Notes under the pieces: model-generated
The model's database searches: none
What the model saw: only the letters and a program-made list of their open reading frames with translations
Told to the model about the DNA's origin: nothing
Translations under genes and position numbers: made by a program
Origin: an uncultured Chloroflexia bacterium
Lineage (GTDB): Bacteria > Chloroflexota > Limnocylindria > QHBO01
Assembly (NCBI GenBank): GCA_963811145.1
Contig: CAWEQC010000001.1
Span: 36,102-100,101, forward strand
Length of the DNA stretch: 64,000 nt
Reading direction: 5' to 3'
Shown here: piece by piece, positions 52,907-60,071 of the stretch
How positions within the stretch are numbered: the stretch's first letter is position 1
Layout of the letters: each line of letters opens with the position of its first letter

Positions 52907-54299
52907 TCAGGTTCGGGAGAGCAGATCCCCGGTGGGTGCCCGCTTGAGGAAACGCCCGTCCCCGGCGGCCCCGAGCCACTCGTCGCCGTCGACGATGACC
53001 TTCCCGCGCGACAGGACGATCTCGCACGTTCCAACCACGTCGCGTCCCTCGTAGCAGGAGTAGTCGACGTTCATGTGGTGCGTCTTGGCGCTGATCGTGT
53101 GCTTCGCGGTCGGGTCGTAGATGACGAGATCCGCATCGGCTCCGACGGCGACGACGCCCTTGCGGCCCTCGAGCCCGAACATGCGAGCCGGCGCTGCGCT
53201 CAGGACCTCGACCCATCGGTTCGGTGTCAGGTGGCCGTCGGCCACCCCGCCCGAGTGGAGCAGGTTGACCCGATCCTCCACGCCCGGCAGCCCGTTGGGA
53301 ACCTTCCGGAAGTCGCCCTCGCCGAGGTCCTTCTGGCCGTGGAAGTCGAACGGACAGTGGTCGGTCGAGACGACCTGGAGGTCGTCCTTCGCCAGCCCCT
53401 TCCACAGCTCACCGGCGTGCTCGGCCGAGCGAAGCGGCGGGGAGCAGACGAACTTGGCGCCCTCGAAGCCGTTGCCCATGTCCTCGAGCGTCAGGAACAG
53501 GTACTGCGGGCAGGTCTCGGCATACGCCGGCAGCCCCTCGTCGCGGGCGCGGCGCACCTCGTTCAGGGCGTCGATGGCGGAGAGATGGACGATGTACACG
53601 GGCACGCCGGCGACCTGCGCCAGACGGATCACCCGGTTCGTCGCCTCGCCCTCCATCACGGGCGAGCGGGAGGTGCCGTGGTAGTACGGATCGGTATTGC
53701 CGGCCTCGACGTTCTGCGCCGCCACCACGTCGATGGCGAGGCCGTTCTCGGCGTGCATGAGGATCAGACCGCCGTTCTTCGCGGTCTGCTGCATGGCGCG
53801 GAAGATCGCGCCGTCATCGGAGAAGAAGACGCCCGGGTAGGCAGTGAACAGCTTGAAGTCGGTGACGCCCTCGTCCACGAGGGTATCCATCTCGGCGAGG
53901 CTGTCATCGGTGACGTCGGACATGATCATGTGGAAGCCGTAGTCGACGCATGCCTTGCCCTCGGCCTTGGCGTGCCAGGCATCGAGGCCCTCGCGCAGGC
54001 TGGCGCCCTTCGACTGCACGGCGAAGTCGATGATCGTGGTGGTGCCGCCGAACGCCGCGGCGCGCGTCCCGGTCTCGAACGTGTCCTTGGCGAACGTGCC
54101 GCCGAACGGCAGCTCCATGTGGGTATGGACGTCGATGGCGCCGGGGATGACCCACTTGCCGCTTGCGTCCACCGTCCGGTCGGCCTGCGACCTCGAGGTC
54201 GGCACCGATGAGCGCGATGCGTTCGCCGTCGACGAGCACGTCCGCCGGCGTGGTGGCATCGGCGTTGACGATCGTTCCACCCTTGATCAGCGTGCGCAT
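52907..54299 (-). pseudogene. Dihydropyrimidinase / D-hydantoinase, one frame disruption near the 5' end as sequenced
   Basis: N-terminus MRTLIKGGTIVNAD...VLVDGERIALIG is in ORF 53904..54350 and the body is in ORF 52907..54280. Motifs DVHTHMELPF, FKLFTAY (carbamylated Lys), MHAENG and STDHCPF. +1 shift near 54190. Confidence 0.9.
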
Positions 54300-54459
54300 C
54301 GGAGCCATCCTAGCGCCGGCGAGGTCAGGGGATGCCCTCCGAGTGCGCATGCCGGGCGCTGTCAGGCGCTATATCGTTAGTGATATATCCTGGCGACATC
54401 GTTGGCGGGTCGGGAGACGGTACGGCAGCCCCTGGCCGGAGGCTGGCGACGCGTTTACC

Positions 54460-55038
54460 ATGTCCCGAATGACCGCGACCATCGATCGCCTGCACTTCAC
54501 CGGCGACGACGAGGCCGATCGCCTGCTGGTGATCGAGCCGATGGCGCTCCTCATCGGCTTCGCGCTCGATCAGCAGGTGCCCGTCCAGAAGGCGTTCTCG
54601 GGACCCAAGGTGCTGCTCGCACGGCTCGGGACCCTCGACCCGCGCCAGCTCGCGACCATCGATCCGGCGAAGCTGGAGGCGGCGGCAAAGGGCCCGCCGG
54701 CGATCCATCGGTTTCCCGGCGCGATGGCCAAACGAGTGCAGGAGCTCGCCAGGTACGTCGTCCAAACCTACGACGGTGATGCCGGACGCCTCTGGACCGA
54801 TGCGACCGACGGCCGGGACCTCCAGCGGCGGATCGCCGCATTGCCCGGCTTCGGCCCGATGAAGGTCGCCTCCCTGACGGCGGTCCTCGGCAAGCTGCTC
54901 GGGATCACGCCGCCGGGCATCGAGGATGTGCTGCCGAAGCATCCGACGCTCGGGGACGTGGACTCGGCGCAGGCGCTGGCCGACTACCAGGCCAAGAAGC
55001 GCGCCCACAAGGCGGCCATGCGAGCCGGCGAGGCTTGA
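54460..55038 (+). CDS. HhH-GPD-type base-excision DNA repair family protein
   Basis: Track ORF 54163..55038, start moved to ATG 54460 (MSRMTATIDRLHFTGDDEADRLL). Contains the LPGFGPMKV helix-hairpin-helix block. Confidence 0.7.
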   Translation: MSRMTATIDRLHFTGDDEADRLLVIEPMALLIGFALDQQVPVQKAFSGPKVLLARLGTLDPRQLATIDPAKLEAAAKGPPAIHRFPGAMAKRVQELARYVVQTYDGDAGRLWTDATDGRDLQRRIAALPGFGPMKVASLTAVLGKLLGITPPGIEDVLPKHPTLGDVDSAQALADYQAKKRAHKAAMRAGEA

Positions 55039-55044
55039 AACGGT

Positions 55045-57823: not shown

Positions 57824-58757
57824 CGTTCATCAGGTAGATGTTGAACTGGGTGACGCCCGCCTCGCGAAGCCGTTCGAGCCGCTCCAGGTGGGCCGACGCA
57901 GGGCCGACGATCGCGAACTCATCGGTGATCTCGTCGGAGACGAAGCTGGCGTTGTCGCTGCCGACCTCGGCGTGATGAAGGTAGTTGTAGCCCTCGCGCT
58001 TCTCGACGTAGCGCCACAGCTCCTCCGGCAGCTCGTCCTTGGGGTACTTGTTGATGAGATCGACGACGTGGTTGCTGACCAGCGCCGGGAACCACCGCAC
58101 CCTGTCGCGTGCCGCCGCCAGGTCGTCGGACACGTGCGCCGGCGCGGCCGCCATCACCTCGATGGCATCGGGGTCGCGGCCCGCCTCCTCCGCCGCGGCA
58201 CGCACGAATCCCATGCACCAGCGGATGATGTGCGGGTCGGCCAGCTGCAGGATGATCCCGTCAGCGACGCGGCCGGCGGCCGCCAGCGCCATCGGTCCGT
58301 AGCCTGCCACCCAGATCGGCACCGGTCCCTGGGTCACCCACGGCATCTGGATCTCGGCCCCGTCGAGCTCGATCTTCTCGCCGGCGGTGAGGGCGCGGAC
58401 GACGCGGCAGCACTCCTCCATGTAGGCGACCGTGGTCGGCTTCTTCCCCATCACGCGCCGGGCGCTGTCGCCGCGTCCGATGCCGAGTACCATTCGCCCG
58501 CCGGTGATCTCGTTGAGCGTGGCCAGCGCCGAGGCGGTGACAGTGATGTCGCGCGTGGCGGGGTTCGTGACGCAGGTGCCGAGCCGCATCTCCTTCGTGG
58601 CGGCGCCCATCAGGGTCAGCAGCGGATACGGATCGCGCCACAGGACGTGCGAGTCGAACATCCAGCCGTAGGCGAAGCCGTTCGCCTCCGCGCGTCTTGC
58701 GAGGTCGACGGACCGGTCGAACCGATGATCCGGCTTGAGCGTGATCCCGAACTTCAT
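57759..58757 (-). CDS. Luciferase-like monooxygenase (LLM) class, probable F420-dependent oxidoreductase
   Basis: 332-aa ORF. MKFGI..., GWMFDSH, LGTCVTNP, LGIGRGDS. TIM-barrel LLM pattern of the F420-dependent subclass. The start overlaps the cupin stop. Confidence 0.8.
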   Translation of the reverse strand: MKFGITLKPDHRFDRSVDLARRAEANGFAYGWMFDSHVLWRDPYPLLTLMGAATKEMRLGTCVTNPATRDITVTASALATLNEITGGRMVLGIGRGDSARRVMGKKPTTVAYMEECCRVVRALTAGEKIELDGAEIQMPWVTQGPVPIWVAGYGPMALAAAGRVADGIILQLADPHIIRWCMGFVRAAAEEAGRDPDAIEVMAAAPAHVSDDLAAARDRVRWFPALVSNHVVDLINKYPKDELPEELWRYVEKREGYNYLHHAEVGSDNASFVSDEITDEFAIVGPASAHLERLERLREAGVTQFNIYLMNGEEEEQLDLYRPIIERVASTA

Positions 58758-59179
58758 GCCGTCCGTTCCTCCGTCACCGCCCGCGGCCCATCGACATCGA
58801 TCGTGAGCGGCCCCTCGCCGGATCGGAAGAGGATCATTGCCAGGTCCTCGGTACCGGCGCTCACGTCGCGATGAACGACCCAGGCAGGCATGCGGCCCAC
58901 GTCCCCGGCTGCGACCGTGATCGCGTCGCTGCCATCAGGGCCGAACTCCCAGCGCAGGACGCCCTCCGTCACATACGCGTAGCTGTCCCATTCACCGTGG
59001 TGGTGCCACGGTGATGCTGCCCCGGGCTCCAGGCGGAGGAAGCCAACCCAGGCGCCCTCGAGGTGGAACGCCTGCTCGCCGACTACCCCGAAGGGAAGCC
59101 CTGTGGCGCTGCTGCGCTGCGTGGATCGGACCACGCTGGGCGCGTCAGGCACGACCATGCTCGCGGATCGCACCGGCAT
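58754..59179 (-). CDS. Cupin domain protein
   Basis: 141-aa ORF. Cupin motifs G..SPWHHHGEWDSYAYV and G.....PAWVVH. Confidence 0.75.
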   Translation of the reverse strand: MPVRSASMVVPDAPSVVRSTQRSSATGLPFGVVGEQAFHLEGAWVGFLRLEPGAASPWHHHGEWDSYAYVTEGVLRWEFGPDGSDAITVAAGDVGRMPAWVVHRDVSAGTEDLAMILFRSGEGPLTIDVDGPRAVTEERTA

Positions 59180-59183
59180 CGCA

Positions 59184-60071
59184 CTAGGGCCGGACGAGGT
59201 CTTCGTAGGCGTCCGGGCGTCGGTCGCGATAGAACTGCCAGAGCTGCCGCACCTCGGTCACCTTGTCCAGGTCCATGTCGCGGACCAGCAGCTCCTCCTT
59301 GTGCGCATCGCCGACGTCGCCGATGAACTGGCCGCGCGGATCGGCGAAGTAGGACTGGCCGTAGAAGTCGTTCTCGCCCAGCGGCTCGATGCCGACACGG
59401 TTGATGGTGCCGACGAAGTAGCCGTTGGCGACGGCATGCGACACCTGCTCGATCCGCCACAGGTACTCGGACAGGCCGCGCGAGGTAGCCGACGGGATGA
59501 AGACCATCTCGGCGCCGTTGAGGCCAAGGGCGCGGGCGCCCTCCGGGAAGTGGCGGTCATAGCAGATGTAGACGCCGACCTTGCCGACCGCGGTGTCGAA
59601 CACCGGGTAGCCCAGGTTGCCGGGTCGGAAGTAGAACTTCTCCCAGAAGCCCTTGACCTGCGGGATGTGTGTCTTGCGGTACTTCCCCAGGTAGGTGCCG
59701 TCGGCGTCGATCACCGCGGCGGTGTTGTAGTAGATGCCCTGGGCGTGCTCGTCCTCCTCGTACATCGGCACGATGAGGACCATCCCGGTCTCCTTCGCCA
59801 GCGCCTGCATGCGCTCCGTGGTCGGGCCGTCGGGGATGTGCTCGGTGTAGGAGAAGTACTGCGGGTCCTGGACCTGGCAGAAGTAGGGGCCGTAGAAGAG
59901 CTCCTGGAAGCACATGACCTTCGCGCCGTCGGCCGCGGCCTTGCGCGCGTACTCGACGTGCTTCTCGATCATGGATTCCTTGTCGCCGGTCCACTCCGCC
60001 TGGAGCAGCGCGGCGCGGACGATTCGCGCCATGAGTTCAACCTCCGCAGAACCGAGTGGGCTCGCACTCAC
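59184..60071 (-). CDS. Carbon-nitrogen hydrolase (nitrilase superfamily), beta-ureidopropionase / N-carbamoyl-amide amidohydrolase-like
   Basis: 295-aa ORF (alternative start ATG 60032, MARIVRAALLQ). E-K-C triad contexts CFQELF, YRKTHIP and YICYDRHFPE. Confidence 0.85.
   Translation of the reverse strand: MSASPLGSAEVELMARIVRAALLQAEWTGDKESMIEKHVEYARKAAADGAKVMCFQELFYGPYFCQVQDPQYFSYTEHIPDGPTTERMQALAKETGMVLIVPMYEEDEHAQGIYYNTAAVIDADGTYLGKYRKTHIPQVKGFWEKFYFRPGNLGYPVFDTAVGKVGVYICYDRHFPEGARALGLNGAEMVFIPSATSRGLSEYLWRIEQVSHAVANGYFVGTINRVGIEPLGENDFYGQSYFADPRGQFIGDVGDAHKEELLVRDMDLDKVTEVRQLWQFYRDRRPDAYEDLVRP

Follow-up and report, generated by a model that had tools for sequence, protein, structure and literature searches.

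The LLM-class oxidoreductase of the 64,000-nucleotide stretch of DNA analysed here (the window), a member of family TIGR03842, is probably an F420H2-dependent uracil/thymine reductase that would stand in for the dihydropyrimidine dehydrogenase PydA as a non-orthologous replacement; all evidence for this assignment is genomic. The window comes from a soil Chloroflexota. The gene lies beside genes for both hydrolases of the reductive pyrimidine pathway in five phyla, and no homolog of the usual first enzyme was found at the loci searched, so that the LLM protein most likely performs the missing reduction. The initial annotation had already cast it as the F420H2-dependent redox step, an idea that the subfamily assignment and the five-phylum linkage now support. 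The genes concerned are as follows:

59184..60071, minus strand: CN-hydrolase (Pfam PF00795, E 9e-65)
58754..59179, minus strand: cupin (Cupin_2, PF07883, E 1e-10)
57759..58757, minus strand: LLM oxidoreductase (TIGR03842, 420 bits against a cutoff of 295)
56915..57823, minus strand: GNAT acetyltransferase (PF00583, E 9e-9, in the C-terminal half)
52907..54299, minus strand: dihydropyrimidinase / D-hydantoinase, PydB (TIGR02033, 528 bits against a cutoff of 393)
52201..53034, minus strand: conserved hypothetical ORF (cluster c13)
47315-48397, minus strand: cofD (PF01933, E 1.5e-50)
46713-47351, minus strand: cofC (PF01983, E 1.8e-24)
45988-46701, minus strand: cofE (PF01996, E 3e-71)

ORF and domain searches recovered all five minus-strand genes previously annotated from the CN-hydrolase to the dihydropyrimidinase, and the tight spacing described for the operon is borne out by the coordinates: the CN-hydrolase and cupin genes are separated by 4 nt (59180-59183), the cupin and LLM genes overlap by 4 nt (58754-58757), and the LLM and GNAT genes overlap by up to 65 nt when the longest GNAT ORF is taken. 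The dihydropyrimidinase gene, earlier placed 5 kb from this operon, lies closer, at 2.6 kb from its GNAT end and 3.5 kb from the LLM gene, and is separated from it by HhH-GPD, WxL and WxLIP genes on the opposite strand. Its family membership is clear (the PDB D-hydantoinase/dihydropyrimidinase match reaches 461 bits), and its substrate is predicted to be a dihydropyrimidine. The gene annotated at 52907..54299 is real, but frameshifted in this assembly: the uninterrupted ORF spans 52907-54280, the true ATG (MRTLIKGG...) at 54299 is in another frame, and comparison with loci L005 and L001 places a 1-nt insertion near 54187. This frameshift in the window's own copy counts against reading the LLM protein as part of a pyrimidine-reducing route; since the genes for Acs (14812-16793), MFS (2891-4203) and MarP (60155-61332) are split likewise, it suggests an assembly indel rather than gene decay.

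The HMM assignment places the LLM protein in an F420-class subfamily, TIGR03842, that is described as a "hypothetical equivalog" without assigned function. By sequence, its top PDB matches are F420 enzymes without exception, led by Mer (F420-dependent methylenetetrahydromethanopterin reductase; PDB 1F07, 1Z69, 8QPL) at 135 bits and followed by fHMAD, FGD and Adf; an AF2 model (pLDDT 76, with low confidence precisely in the conserved active-site loops) matches Mer at a TM of ~0.8, and the nearest solved relatives are, by sequence and by fold, exclusively F420 enzymes. FMN-type LLM models score no more than 42 bits. The protein is a TIM barrel, as is Mer, its closest solved relative, and Fe-S, FMN and FAD domains are absent from it. 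It is not Mer, since it scores only 158-172 bits against Mer models with cutoffs of 276 and 349, and its conserved segment 250-265 (Y250, R254, Y257, Y259, H262) aligns to Mer poorly and with gaps. In the reaction of Mer, as in the proposed role, hydride nevertheless passes from F420H2 onto an electron-poor carbon within an N-heterocycle, although the hosts of the window-type LLM are not methanogens and the gene context is one of pyrimidine catabolism. Both the probable substrate and even the F420 cofactor are assigned from family relationships and gene context.

No PydA, PreT or PreA domain occurs among the ~50 window ORFs scanned with Pfam, and tblastn with PreT/PreA queries from E. coli and Rhodobacterales gave no match in the window at E<=1e-3, in agreement with the absence already noted for PydA/PreT-PreA. 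The same holds at E<=1e-3 to 1e-4 for PreT/PreA homologs in the window together with 89 loci (1.5 Mb in total), a search that covered +/-10 kb around each LLM gene. The window does carry cofD, cofC and cofE, as had been reported; they are syntenic in relatives, and their products are proposed to supply the LLM protein with its cofactor F420.

The distance of ~10-12 kb between the LLM gene and cofD/C/E in the window and its relatives, and its position as the last gene of cofG-H-D-C-E-npdG in Paracoccus alcaliphilus and Leisingera, also suit a role in F420 biosynthesis or maturation, for example reduction of dehydro-F420-0 where CofE has no FbiB C-terminal domain, with the proximity to pyrimidine genes a matter of coincidence or co-transfer. 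A missing dehydro-F420-0 reductase is an idea that comes from the revised F420 pathway. Such a role would explain why the gene ends the alphaproteobacterial cof operon. It is hardly probable at all, however, given that the LLM gene of Streptomyces, Acidobacteriota, Dormiibacterota and clade-2 Chloroflexota sits beside a dihydropyrimidinase and/or a CN-hydrolase and has no cof genes in the 10 kb around it, and that the most conserved feature of all is the adjacency of the CN-hydrolase and LLM genes.

The linkage was surveyed in 80 species-level related genomes, with fractions counted on loci with full flanks. At 18/18 clade-1 and 18/20 clade-2 Chloroflexota loci, the gene immediately upstream of the LLM gene is that for the CN-hydrolase. 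All 18 clade-1 loci and 12 of the 20 clade-2 loci have a dihydropyrimidinase no more than 10 kb from the LLM gene; none was found within that distance at the other 8, nor within 12 kb at the P. alcaliphilus locus, and both gaps count against the pyrimidine reading. The same linkage recurs in Acidobacteriota, Dormiibacterota, Streptomyces sp. BHT-5-2 and S. rimosus, and in Alphaproteobacteria with an amidase of the M20 type, non-homologous to the CN-hydrolase; comparison across genomes thus covers five phyla in which TIGR03842 is physically linked, in differing gene orders, with a dihydropyrimidinase and with an N-carbamoyl-amidase. Related loci often add NCS1 or ABC transporters of pyrimidine type (an NCS1 nucleobase permease adjoins the LLM gene in L049, L058, L062 and L082), a class-III aminotransferase and an aldehyde or Fe-alcohol dehydrogenase. 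One acidobacterial locus, L080, is a single-strand operon of CN-hydrolase, class-III aminotransferase, ALDH, LLM and dihydropyrimidinase genes, and clade-2 loci have, in addition, an Fe-ADH similar to PydE from the extended version of the Pyd pathway (named in the legend to Figure 1C of PMC7332683). The aminotransferase and ALDH score below the cutoffs of every specific beta-alanine or malonate-semialdehyde model, a further point against the pyrimidine reading.

Other neighbours are less widely shared. The cupin gene, always between the CN-hydrolase and LLM genes, is confined to 19 loci of one Chloroflexota clade (clade 1) and was not found at clade-2, Acidobacteriota, Dormiibacterota, Streptomyces or Leisingera loci in the cross-locus comparison, so the redox role once considered for it is not supported; this small Cupin_2 protein, whose PDB matches are weak and generic, is a lineage-specific accessory outside the core. 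The GNAT protein, with homologs at only 4 other distinct loci and in variable positions, is likewise an accessory, a clade-specific addition unconserved with the cluster. The hypothetical ORF just downstream of the dihydropyrimidinase (~210 aa in relatives; no match in a Pfam scan) belongs to a cluster of 18 members that directly follows the dihydropyrimidinase at 17 clade-1 loci, and is possibly co-transcribed with it.

The CN-hydrolase belongs to the nitrilase superfamily, and from its branch there it is proposed to be a beta-ureidopropionase (PydC). Its PDB matches are an N-carbamoylputrescine amidohydrolase at 210 bits, beta-ureidopropionases at 170-182 bits and D-carbamoylases at ~90 bits. 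A role in hydantoin or N-carbamoyl-amino-acid turnover, offered in the initial annotation as an alternative, is not supported, in view of the distance from the D-carbamoylases (~90 bits vs 182-210 for the other two groups) and of the beta-alanine-type downstream enzymes of related clusters. The slight lead of N-carbamoylputrescine amidase over beta-ureidopropionase is an observation that counts against the pyrimidine reading. It is in keeping with a polyamine module (agmatine/putrescine or diaminopropane) in which the CN-hydrolase would be an N-carbamoylputrescine amidase acting with a class-III aminotransferase, a PLP decarboxylase and an ALDH, and whose linkage to LLM and dihydropyrimidinase would be unrelated to pyrimidine breakdown; a class-III aminotransferase and a group-II PLP decarboxylase (weakly DABA-decarboxylase/PanP-like), forming a divergent pair, are indeed conserved beside the Chloroflexota cluster. 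This module is very unlikely, as the AguB model, although the best NCBIfam match, scores 267, far under its cutoff of 410; no agmatine deiminase occurs in the Pfam lists of L001-L003 or among annotated conserved neighbour clusters; the dihydropyrimidinase, NCS1 permease and LLM protein are left unexplained; and the Leisingera amidase, of the M20 hydantoinase/carbamoylase family, is orthologous to the enzyme of a canonical PreTA cluster.

That orthology is part of a positional replacement. One arm of a Leisingera caerulea plasmid locus encodes NCS1, hydA, M20 carbamoyl-amidase, AptA omega-aminotransferase and PntBA, and the divergent arm cofG-H-D-C-E, npdG, TIGR03842 and TetR. An orthologous and canonical Rhodobacterales cluster, that of Qingshengfaniella, encodes hydA and M20 amidase proteins 74% identical to these and a TetR 47% identical, and there PreT-PreA adjoin the TetR; in Leisingera the cofGHDCE-npdG-LLM operon displaces PreT-PreA at the same position. 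The Chloroflexota loci are flanked by homologs of the Qingshengfaniella-cluster ABC transporter, with 55% identity for the ATPase and 36-37% for the SBP.

Unlikely, but deserving of weight, is a reading in which the LLM protein belongs to the same ureide/pyrimidine module and catalyses another redox step or acts on another substrate: F420-dependent conversion of malonic semialdehyde to 3-hydroxypropionate (PydE-like), reduction of 'yanthine' (a uracil-like ring of purine origin), of a 5-substituted pyrimidine or of a hydantoin, or recharging of F420 through the oxidation of an alcohol intermediate. Characterised F420 LLM enzymes (Adf, FGD, fHMAD, Mer) are mostly alcohol/carbonyl or imine oxidoreductases, and the Leisingera cluster has neither PydA nor a malonic-semialdehyde enzyme. 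At some Acidobacteriota loci the LLM gene adjoins genes for xanthine-dehydrogenase-type Mo-hydroxylase subunits or an Amidohydro_3 (UacY-like) protein, so the substrate may not be identical everywhere; the pairing is reminiscent of reductive uric-acid breakdown, where a role for an F420 LLM of Chloroflexota has been proposed (PMC12507026). Against this, the LLM gene persists where ALDH or Fe-ADH is present (L080, L076, clade 2) and the semialdehyde step is therefore already covered; the first reduction is the only role vacant in every context; the LLM gene sits exactly where PreT-PreA do, beside orthologous TetR, M20 and hydA genes; and the window amidohydrolase is TIGR02033, with no XDH-type or second large amidohydrolase domain among the Pfam-scanned window ORFs.

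Under the preferred reading of a pyrimidine reductase, C6 of uracil or thymine would receive a hydride from F420H2 while an active-site acid protonates C5, yielding 5,6-dihydrouracil or dihydrothymine. Hydride transfer from F420H2 onto the picrate ring is known for LLHT Fht (PMC8498797). The dihydropyrimidinase would then open the ring, and the nitrilase-type CN-hydrolase would release beta-alanine (or beta-aminoisobutyrate), CO2 and NH3. In relatives the bases would be imported via NCS1 or ABC transporters, a class-III omega-aminotransferase with an aldehyde dehydrogenase or Fe-alcohol dehydrogenase would carry on from beta-alanine, and in Alphaproteobacteria F420 would be recharged from NADPH by Fno (npdG).

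RutA, an FMN-dependent LLM pyrimidine monooxygenase that cleaves the ring oxidatively with FMNH2 and O2 and works with RutB-G, likewise attacks the uracil ring with a luciferase-like TIM barrel as the first catabolic step, but Rut genes are absent here and the enzymes that follow belong to the reductive route. The Pyd pathway comprises PydA (NADPH-, NADH- (PreAT) or ferredoxin-dependent PydAc), PydB, PydC and a PydD/PydE/MSDH extension (PMC7332683). The TIGR02033 dihydropyrimidinase and the N-carbamoyl-amidase are shared with it, and relatives also have its omega-aminotransferase, an aldehyde or alcohol dehydrogenase, transporters for nucleobases and a TetR regulator, whereas the studied loci have no PydA/PreTA/PydAc homolog, the LLM protein is their only conserved oxidoreductase, the predicted donor is F420H2 rather than NAD(P)H or ferredoxin, and PydC of Chloroflexota, Acidobacteriota and Streptomyces is of the nitrilase superfamily, eukaryote-type. 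Two cases, one a proposal and one with genetic evidence, suggest that an F420-type oxidoreductase can take over from a DPD-like flavoprotein in the reductive dearomatisation of uracil-like rings: an SsnA-linked putative F420 LLM of Chloroflexota reductive uric-acid clusters, proposed bioinformatically to replace the PydA-like YgfK/UacX and to act on a purine-derived intermediate (PMC12507026), and NpsU/SSGG-03002, a putative F420/FMN oxidoreductase that genetic evidence shows to be needed for reducing the C5=C6 bond of a uracil moiety, a tailoring step of secondary metabolism in uridyl-peptide antibiotics (PMC10714638). Both stop short of biochemical proof, and neither describes a TIGR03842/dihydropyrimidinase/beta-ureidopropionase module for free pyrimidines. 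If correct, the assignment would provide a first physiological role of coenzyme F420 in several non-actinobacterial phyla.

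The five genes named in the initial annotation are real by ORF calls, GC3 frame analysis (which separated real genes from spurious ORFs in this window of ~70% G+C) and Pfam, and all of them lie on the minus strand:

52907-54280, minus strand: dihydropyrimidinase (amidohydrolase, TIGR02033); uninterrupted ORF, true ATG at 54299
56915-57823, minus strand: GNAT protein (Pfam)
57759-58757, minus strand: LLM, luciferase-like oxidoreductase (PF00296, E 5e-65)
58754-59179, minus strand: Cupin_2 protein (Pfam)
59184-60071, minus strand: CN-hydrolase, nitrilase-superfamily C-N hydrolase (PF00795, E 9e-65)

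The spacing within the operon is likewise as first described: a 4-nt gap, a 4-nt overlap, and then an overlap of up to 65 nt with the longest GNAT ORF. The F420 biosynthesis genes cofD, cofC and cofE, which the window was said to encode, are also present, at 45988-48397; neither cofG/cofH nor fbiC was seen within the 64-kb window. An aldehyde dehydrogenase (ALDH; 48300-49706) was considered as a further cluster member and not counted, as it is succinate-semialdehyde-dehydrogenase-like and CinA intervenes. A conserved hypothetical ORF (52201-53034, minus strand, ~210 aa, no Pfam match) lies directly 3' of the dihydropyrimidinase in 17 loci of the window's Chloroflexota clade; its longest-ORF call extends into the 3' end of the dihydropyrimidinase. 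Rfam searches at gathering thresholds and tRNA and promoter/terminator scans gave nothing useful on regulatory features of the window.

Several other genes of the window were recorded. A heliorhodopsin gene (61960-62907, minus strand; NF038020, 329 bits vs a cutoff of 100) is conserved in synteny close to the cluster in many relatives of the same clade. The interval from the dihydropyrimidinase to the LLM operon holds genes for two surface proteins, of the WxL-domain (55361-55939, plus strand) and WxLIP (55942-56961, plus strand) families, which are typical of Firmicutes; both fall in very small clusters of neighbouring genes. The nitroreductase and PNPOx_N families include F420-related enzymes: a nitroreductase-family protein with two PF00881 matches is encoded at 32009-32992 (plus strand), and at the position of a small ORF (49707-50066, minus strand), linked by tblastn to the related loci L005, L022 and L032, relatives carry a PNPOx_N-family gene. 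Two DUF885 paralogs (24192-25922 and 40236-41915, both minus strand) match with E ~1e-96 each.

The dihydropyrimidinase scores 528 bits on TIGR02033 (dihydropyrimidinase/D-hydantoinase; NCBIfam cutoff 393), and its PDB matches are bacterial D-hydantoinase/dihydropyrimidinase structures (461 bits). Position 54299, originally given as the end of this gene, is indeed the true ATG (MRTLIKGG...), in a frame other than that of the long ORF: the 38 N-terminal codons are off-frame, and compared with the related loci L005 and L001 the window has one extra nucleotide near 54187, through which they join the long ORF. Three further genes of the window are split by frameshifts (acs, 14812-16793; an MFS transporter, 2891-4203; a MarP-like protease, 60155-61332). 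With four genes frameshifted within 64 kb, assembly indels are likelier than a pseudogene, and the split dihydropyrimidinase more likely reflects an indel-prone assembly. The pattern of split genes suggests long-read indel errors; the closest relatives are 'MFD' MAGs.

Comparison of the CN-hydrolase with PDB sequences gives 210 bits for N-carbamoylputrescine amidase, 182 bits for beta-ureidopropionase and only ~78-90 bits for D-carbamoylases, which places it in the beta-ureidopropionase/N-carbamoylputrescine-amidase branch; it is a candidate for PydC, the beta-ureidopropionase of the reductive pyrimidine (Pyd) pathway. Action on hydantoins or N-carbamoyl amino acids, raised as an alternative in the initial annotation, is disfavoured because this branch is far from the D-carbamoylases and because the downstream enzymes are also contrary to a hydantoin/D-amino-acid system; no hydantoin racemase (Asp/Glu-racemase-type gene) occurs among the annotated neighbours in the window and the related loci. 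A role of the CN-hydrolase in polyamine metabolism, towards which its best PDB match might point, fails: the protein reaches 267 bits on the AguB model TIGR03381, below the cutoff of 410 (no specific NCBIfam model was passed), neither the window operon nor the conserved neighbour clusters examined include an agmatine deiminase (AguA), and the dihydropyrimidinase, the NCS1 symporter of related loci and the LLM would be left unexplained. Two unannotated conserved neighbour clusters, considered as agmatine deiminase candidates, turned out to be homocysteine-methyltransferase-like and PEPCK.

Assignment of the LLM to its subfamily by HMM, proposed at the outset as a check, gives a definite answer: over its full length the protein scores 420 bits on TIGR03842 (F420_CPS_4043; NCBIfam cutoff 295), a family still listed in June 2026 as a "hypothetical equivalog". 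The cutoff is also passed by homologs from Acidobacteriota (420 bits), Dormiibacterota (411), a second Chloroflexota clade (441) and Streptomyces (590), and the Leisingera and Paracoccus genes are named as TIGR03842-type in RefSeq. All ten PDB sequence matches at E<1e-10 are F420 enzymes, led by Mer, the F420-dependent methylenetetrahydromethanopterin reductase (135 bits), and followed by fHMAD, FGD and Adf. An AF2 model of moderate quality (pLDDT 76, pTM 0.79) retrieves Mer at ranks 1-8 in Foldseek (TM 0.75-0.81). Pfam, PDB and model thus agree on the luciferase-like TIM-barrel fold of the subgroup that uses F420. FMN-type LLM families score at most 42 bits on the window protein and the FGD model 53 bits (cutoff 420), and the LLM is therefore neither RutA-like nor FGD. 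An alignment of seven lineages contains 80 invariant residues, including D35, S36, V63-T-N-P66, R69, G94-R-G-D-S98, N229, H230, Y257, Y259 and H262. The AF2 confidence is lowest in three conserved segments (36-40, 96-105 and 255-269), which would fit ligand-dependent loops. Two candidates for the active-site acid were discarded: no Cys comparable to that of DPD/DHODH is conserved in all phyla, and Streptomyces has Ser in place of His37. The family is large, with at least 8000 TIGR03842-like proteins at 90% identity clustering (E<=1e-30), and highly conserved; many MAGs labelled Chloroflexi or Limnocylindria, plus one labelled Binatia, carry homologs of 82-91% identity.

The window was originally held to lack a PydA-type dihydropyrimidine dehydrogenase, and this holds: tblastn with E. 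coli PreT/PreA (PreTA, the two-subunit PydA) and Pfam scans gave no match, and no DHO_dh or Pyr_redox_2 domain is present among the ~50 window ORFs scanned. With queries from both E. coli and Rhodobacterales, PreT/PreA homologs are absent from the window and 89 related loci around LLM homologs (1.5 Mb in total); PydA is probably absent from the remainder of each genome as well. The locus also differs from two known systems. The Rut pathway has RutA, an FMN-dependent LLM, with RutB-G; no RutA model is among the 25 best NCBIfam matches listed for the window LLM, and no Rut partner domain (isochorismatase, YjgF, alpha/beta hydrolase set) was detected by Pfam around the operon. In the reductive uric-acid pathway (XdhD-YgfK/UacX-SsnA-HyuA) the comparison fails at the amidohydrolase, which in the window is TIGR02033 instead; among the window ORFs scanned with Pfam there is no XDH-type and no second large amidohydrolase domain.

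Linkage was examined across genomes. LLM relatives occur in at least 582 species-level genomes (one genome per GTDB species, two peptide patterns), of which the best 80 were analysed; the related loci were searched with the window proteins, and all predicted neighbours were clustered and then counted. The clade counts take only loci with at least 8 kb on each side of the LLM. Clade 1 is that of the window; in clade 2 the LLM is ~65% identical to that of the window.

Genes linked to the LLM in the two Chloroflexota clades (clade 1, n=18; clade 2, n=20)
CN-hydrolase, nearly always directly upstream of the LLM on the same strand: clade 1, 18/18; clade 2, 18/20
Dihydropyrimidinase within 10 kb of the LLM: clade 1, 18/18; clade 2, 12/20
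Class-III aminotransferase: clade 1, 11/18; clade 2, 19/20
Fe-alcohol dehydrogenase (Fe-ADH): clade 1, none seen; clade 2, 14/20
ABC-transporter genes: clade 1, 7/18; clade 2, 14/20

The association of this LLM subfamily with dihydropyrimidinase and amidase genes, suggested earlier as a test of the pyrimidine assignment, is thus found in Chloroflexota, and it extends to other phyla. The Acidobacteriota locus L080 is a one-strand operon of CN-hydrolase, class-III aminotransferase, ALDH, a small ORF, TIGR03842 LLM and TIGR02033 dihydropyrimidinase, in which no NCBIfam model specific for beta-alanine or malonate semialdehyde resolved the aminotransferase or the ALDH. An NCS1 nucleobase:cation symporter is encoded between or beside the CN-hydrolase and the LLM in one Dormiibacterota (L049) and three Acidobacteriota (L058, L062, L082) loci. 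The cupin is found in only 19 clade-1 loci, invariably between CN-hydrolase and LLM, and GNAT homologs in four other loci; both are lineage-specific accessories. Comparison of the cupin with PDB sequences gave generic bicupin matches only and no functional lead.

Searching PLSDB at the protein level yielded annotated TIGR03842 genes in cultured bacteria. Streptomyces sp. BHT-5-2 and S. rimosus share one arrangement: CN-hydrolase and class-III aminotransferase come first and, after a gap of 2-4.5 kb, are followed by dihydropyrimidinase and LLM. Their CN-hydrolases are 68-69% and their dihydropyrimidinases 62-63% identical to the window proteins. On plasmids of Paracoccus alcaliphilus and Leisingera caerulea (L086 6587-13002, L087 6510-13002) the LLM is the last gene of an operon cofG-cofH-cofD-cofC-cofE-npdG, npdG encoding the NADPH:F420 reductase Fno; this arrangement looks like a self-contained cofactor-plus-client module. 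A function of the LLM in F420 maturation would fit this alphaproteobacterial operon; no cof genes, however, lie near the LLM in Streptomyces, Acidobacteriota or clade-2 Chloroflexota. Divergent from the Leisingera cof operon are PntAB, an AptA-type omega-aminotransferase (750 bits), an M20 hydantoinase/carbamoylase-family amidase, hydA (TIGR02033, 615 bits) and an NCS1 permease; PntAB, an NADPH source, stands directly beside the operon. The M20 amidase is non-homologous to the nitrilase-type CN-hydrolase of the window, and what is constant across phyla is therefore a functional trio and no single inherited gene block.

The Leisingera cluster can be compared with a canonical Rhodobacterales Pyd cluster, that of Qingshengfaniella alkalisoli, which comprises a PreT-like gene, PreA, TetR, M20 amidase, hydA and an ABC transporter. 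The M20 amidase and hydA are each 74% identical between the two, and the TetR, located 3' of the Leisingera LLM, 47%; the cof-npdG-LLM operon therefore sits where PreT-PreA sit in the orthologous cluster. The ten Leisingera plasmids are not among the PreA-bearing records in the plasmid collection searched with PreA. The Chloroflexota loci are flanked by homologs of the Qingshengfaniella ABC transporter, with identities of 55% for the ATPase, 38-46% for the permeases and 36-37% for the SBP. In most Chloroflexota loci a class-III aminotransferase (PRK06062 family) and a group-II PLP decarboxylase, the latter weakly DABA-decarboxylase/PanP-like, form a divergent pair upstream of CN-hydrolase-LLM (e.g. 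L047 5529-8313, L079 5728-8760), adjoining these transporter genes.

The most economical reading of these sequence comparisons is that the LLM would be an F420H2-dependent uracil/thymine reductase, a non-orthologous displacement of PydA. Dihydropyrimidinase and amidase need a dihydropyrimidine, and no oxidoreductase other than the LLM accompanies them in all lineages; in organisms where F420 is otherwise rare, the LLM shares an operon with the genes for F420 synthesis and the NADPH:F420 reductase; and it stands exactly at the PreTA position of the orthologous cluster. Family memberships, gene order, linkage and the lack of PreTA around the LLM are direct results; substrate, reductive direction and use of F420 are predictions. 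They would follow a simple scheme, in which F420H2 donates a hydride from its C5 to C6 of the base, C5 of the base is protonated by an enzyme acid, and the ring is hydrolysed open before removal of the carbamoyl group yields beta-alanine.

In some Acidobacteriota the neighbours differ. In L067 (5278-7990), L083 (11099-15600) and L082 (11514-15100) an XDH-type Mo-binding subunit follows the LLM, with two small conserved ORFs and an ALDH; unlike the window, these three loci may be of the uric-acid type. In L068 and L078 an Amidohydro_3 protein, a CN-hydrolase and a second LLM take the place of the XDH-type subunits. Such loci may be variants for other N-heterocycles, and they lend some weight to the view that the LLM could act on a related ring or at another step, e.g. 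malonic semialdehyde reduction. Yet the LLM is retained in clusters that already have an ALDH or Fe-ADH, and its positional replacement of PreTA speaks for the first step.

Chemically, reduction of a pyrimidine by an F420-dependent enzyme has precedents. The LLHT Fht delivers hydride to the ring of picrate (PMC8498797), a uracil moiety is reduced at C5=C6 only if NpsU/SSGG-03002 is available (PMC10714638), and an F420 LLM was proposed, from bioinformatics only, to substitute for the DPD-like YgfK/UacX in Chloroflexota uric-acid clusters (PMC12507026). The PydA variants known so far draw their electrons from NADPH, NADH or ferredoxin (PMC7332683). No description of an F420-dependent Pyd pathway was found in the full-text literature searched, beyond which such a paper may exist; the locus would represent a known pathway altered by non-orthologous displacement of the first enzyme. 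Taken jointly, it is judged slightly more probable than improbable that TIGR03842 is an unrecognised, non-homologous F420H2-dependent uracil/thymine reductase, widespread in soil Chloroflexota, Acidobacteriota, Dormiibacterota and Streptomyces, and that the horizontally acquired cofGHDCE-npdG island of the alphaproteobacteria Leisingera and Paracoccus mainly serves it.

If correct, the first step of the Pyd pathway would have a fourth, non-homologous enzyme form, one without need for Fe-S clusters, and a large "hypothetical equivalog" family would gain a function; pathway calls in metagenomes would improve, as carriers would at present be taken to lack pyrimidine catabolism. Cultured carriers open to direct tests are Leisingera caerulea, Paracoccus alcaliphilus and Streptomyces rimosus. 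According to a 2021 review, experimental work on F420-dependent enzymes in bacteria had been confined to Actinobacteria, and why Proteobacteria and Chloroflexi make F420 was unknown. The locus and its relatives offer a testable answer, salvage of pyrimidine nitrogen and carbon, with which F420 would have its first defined physiological role in these phyla.
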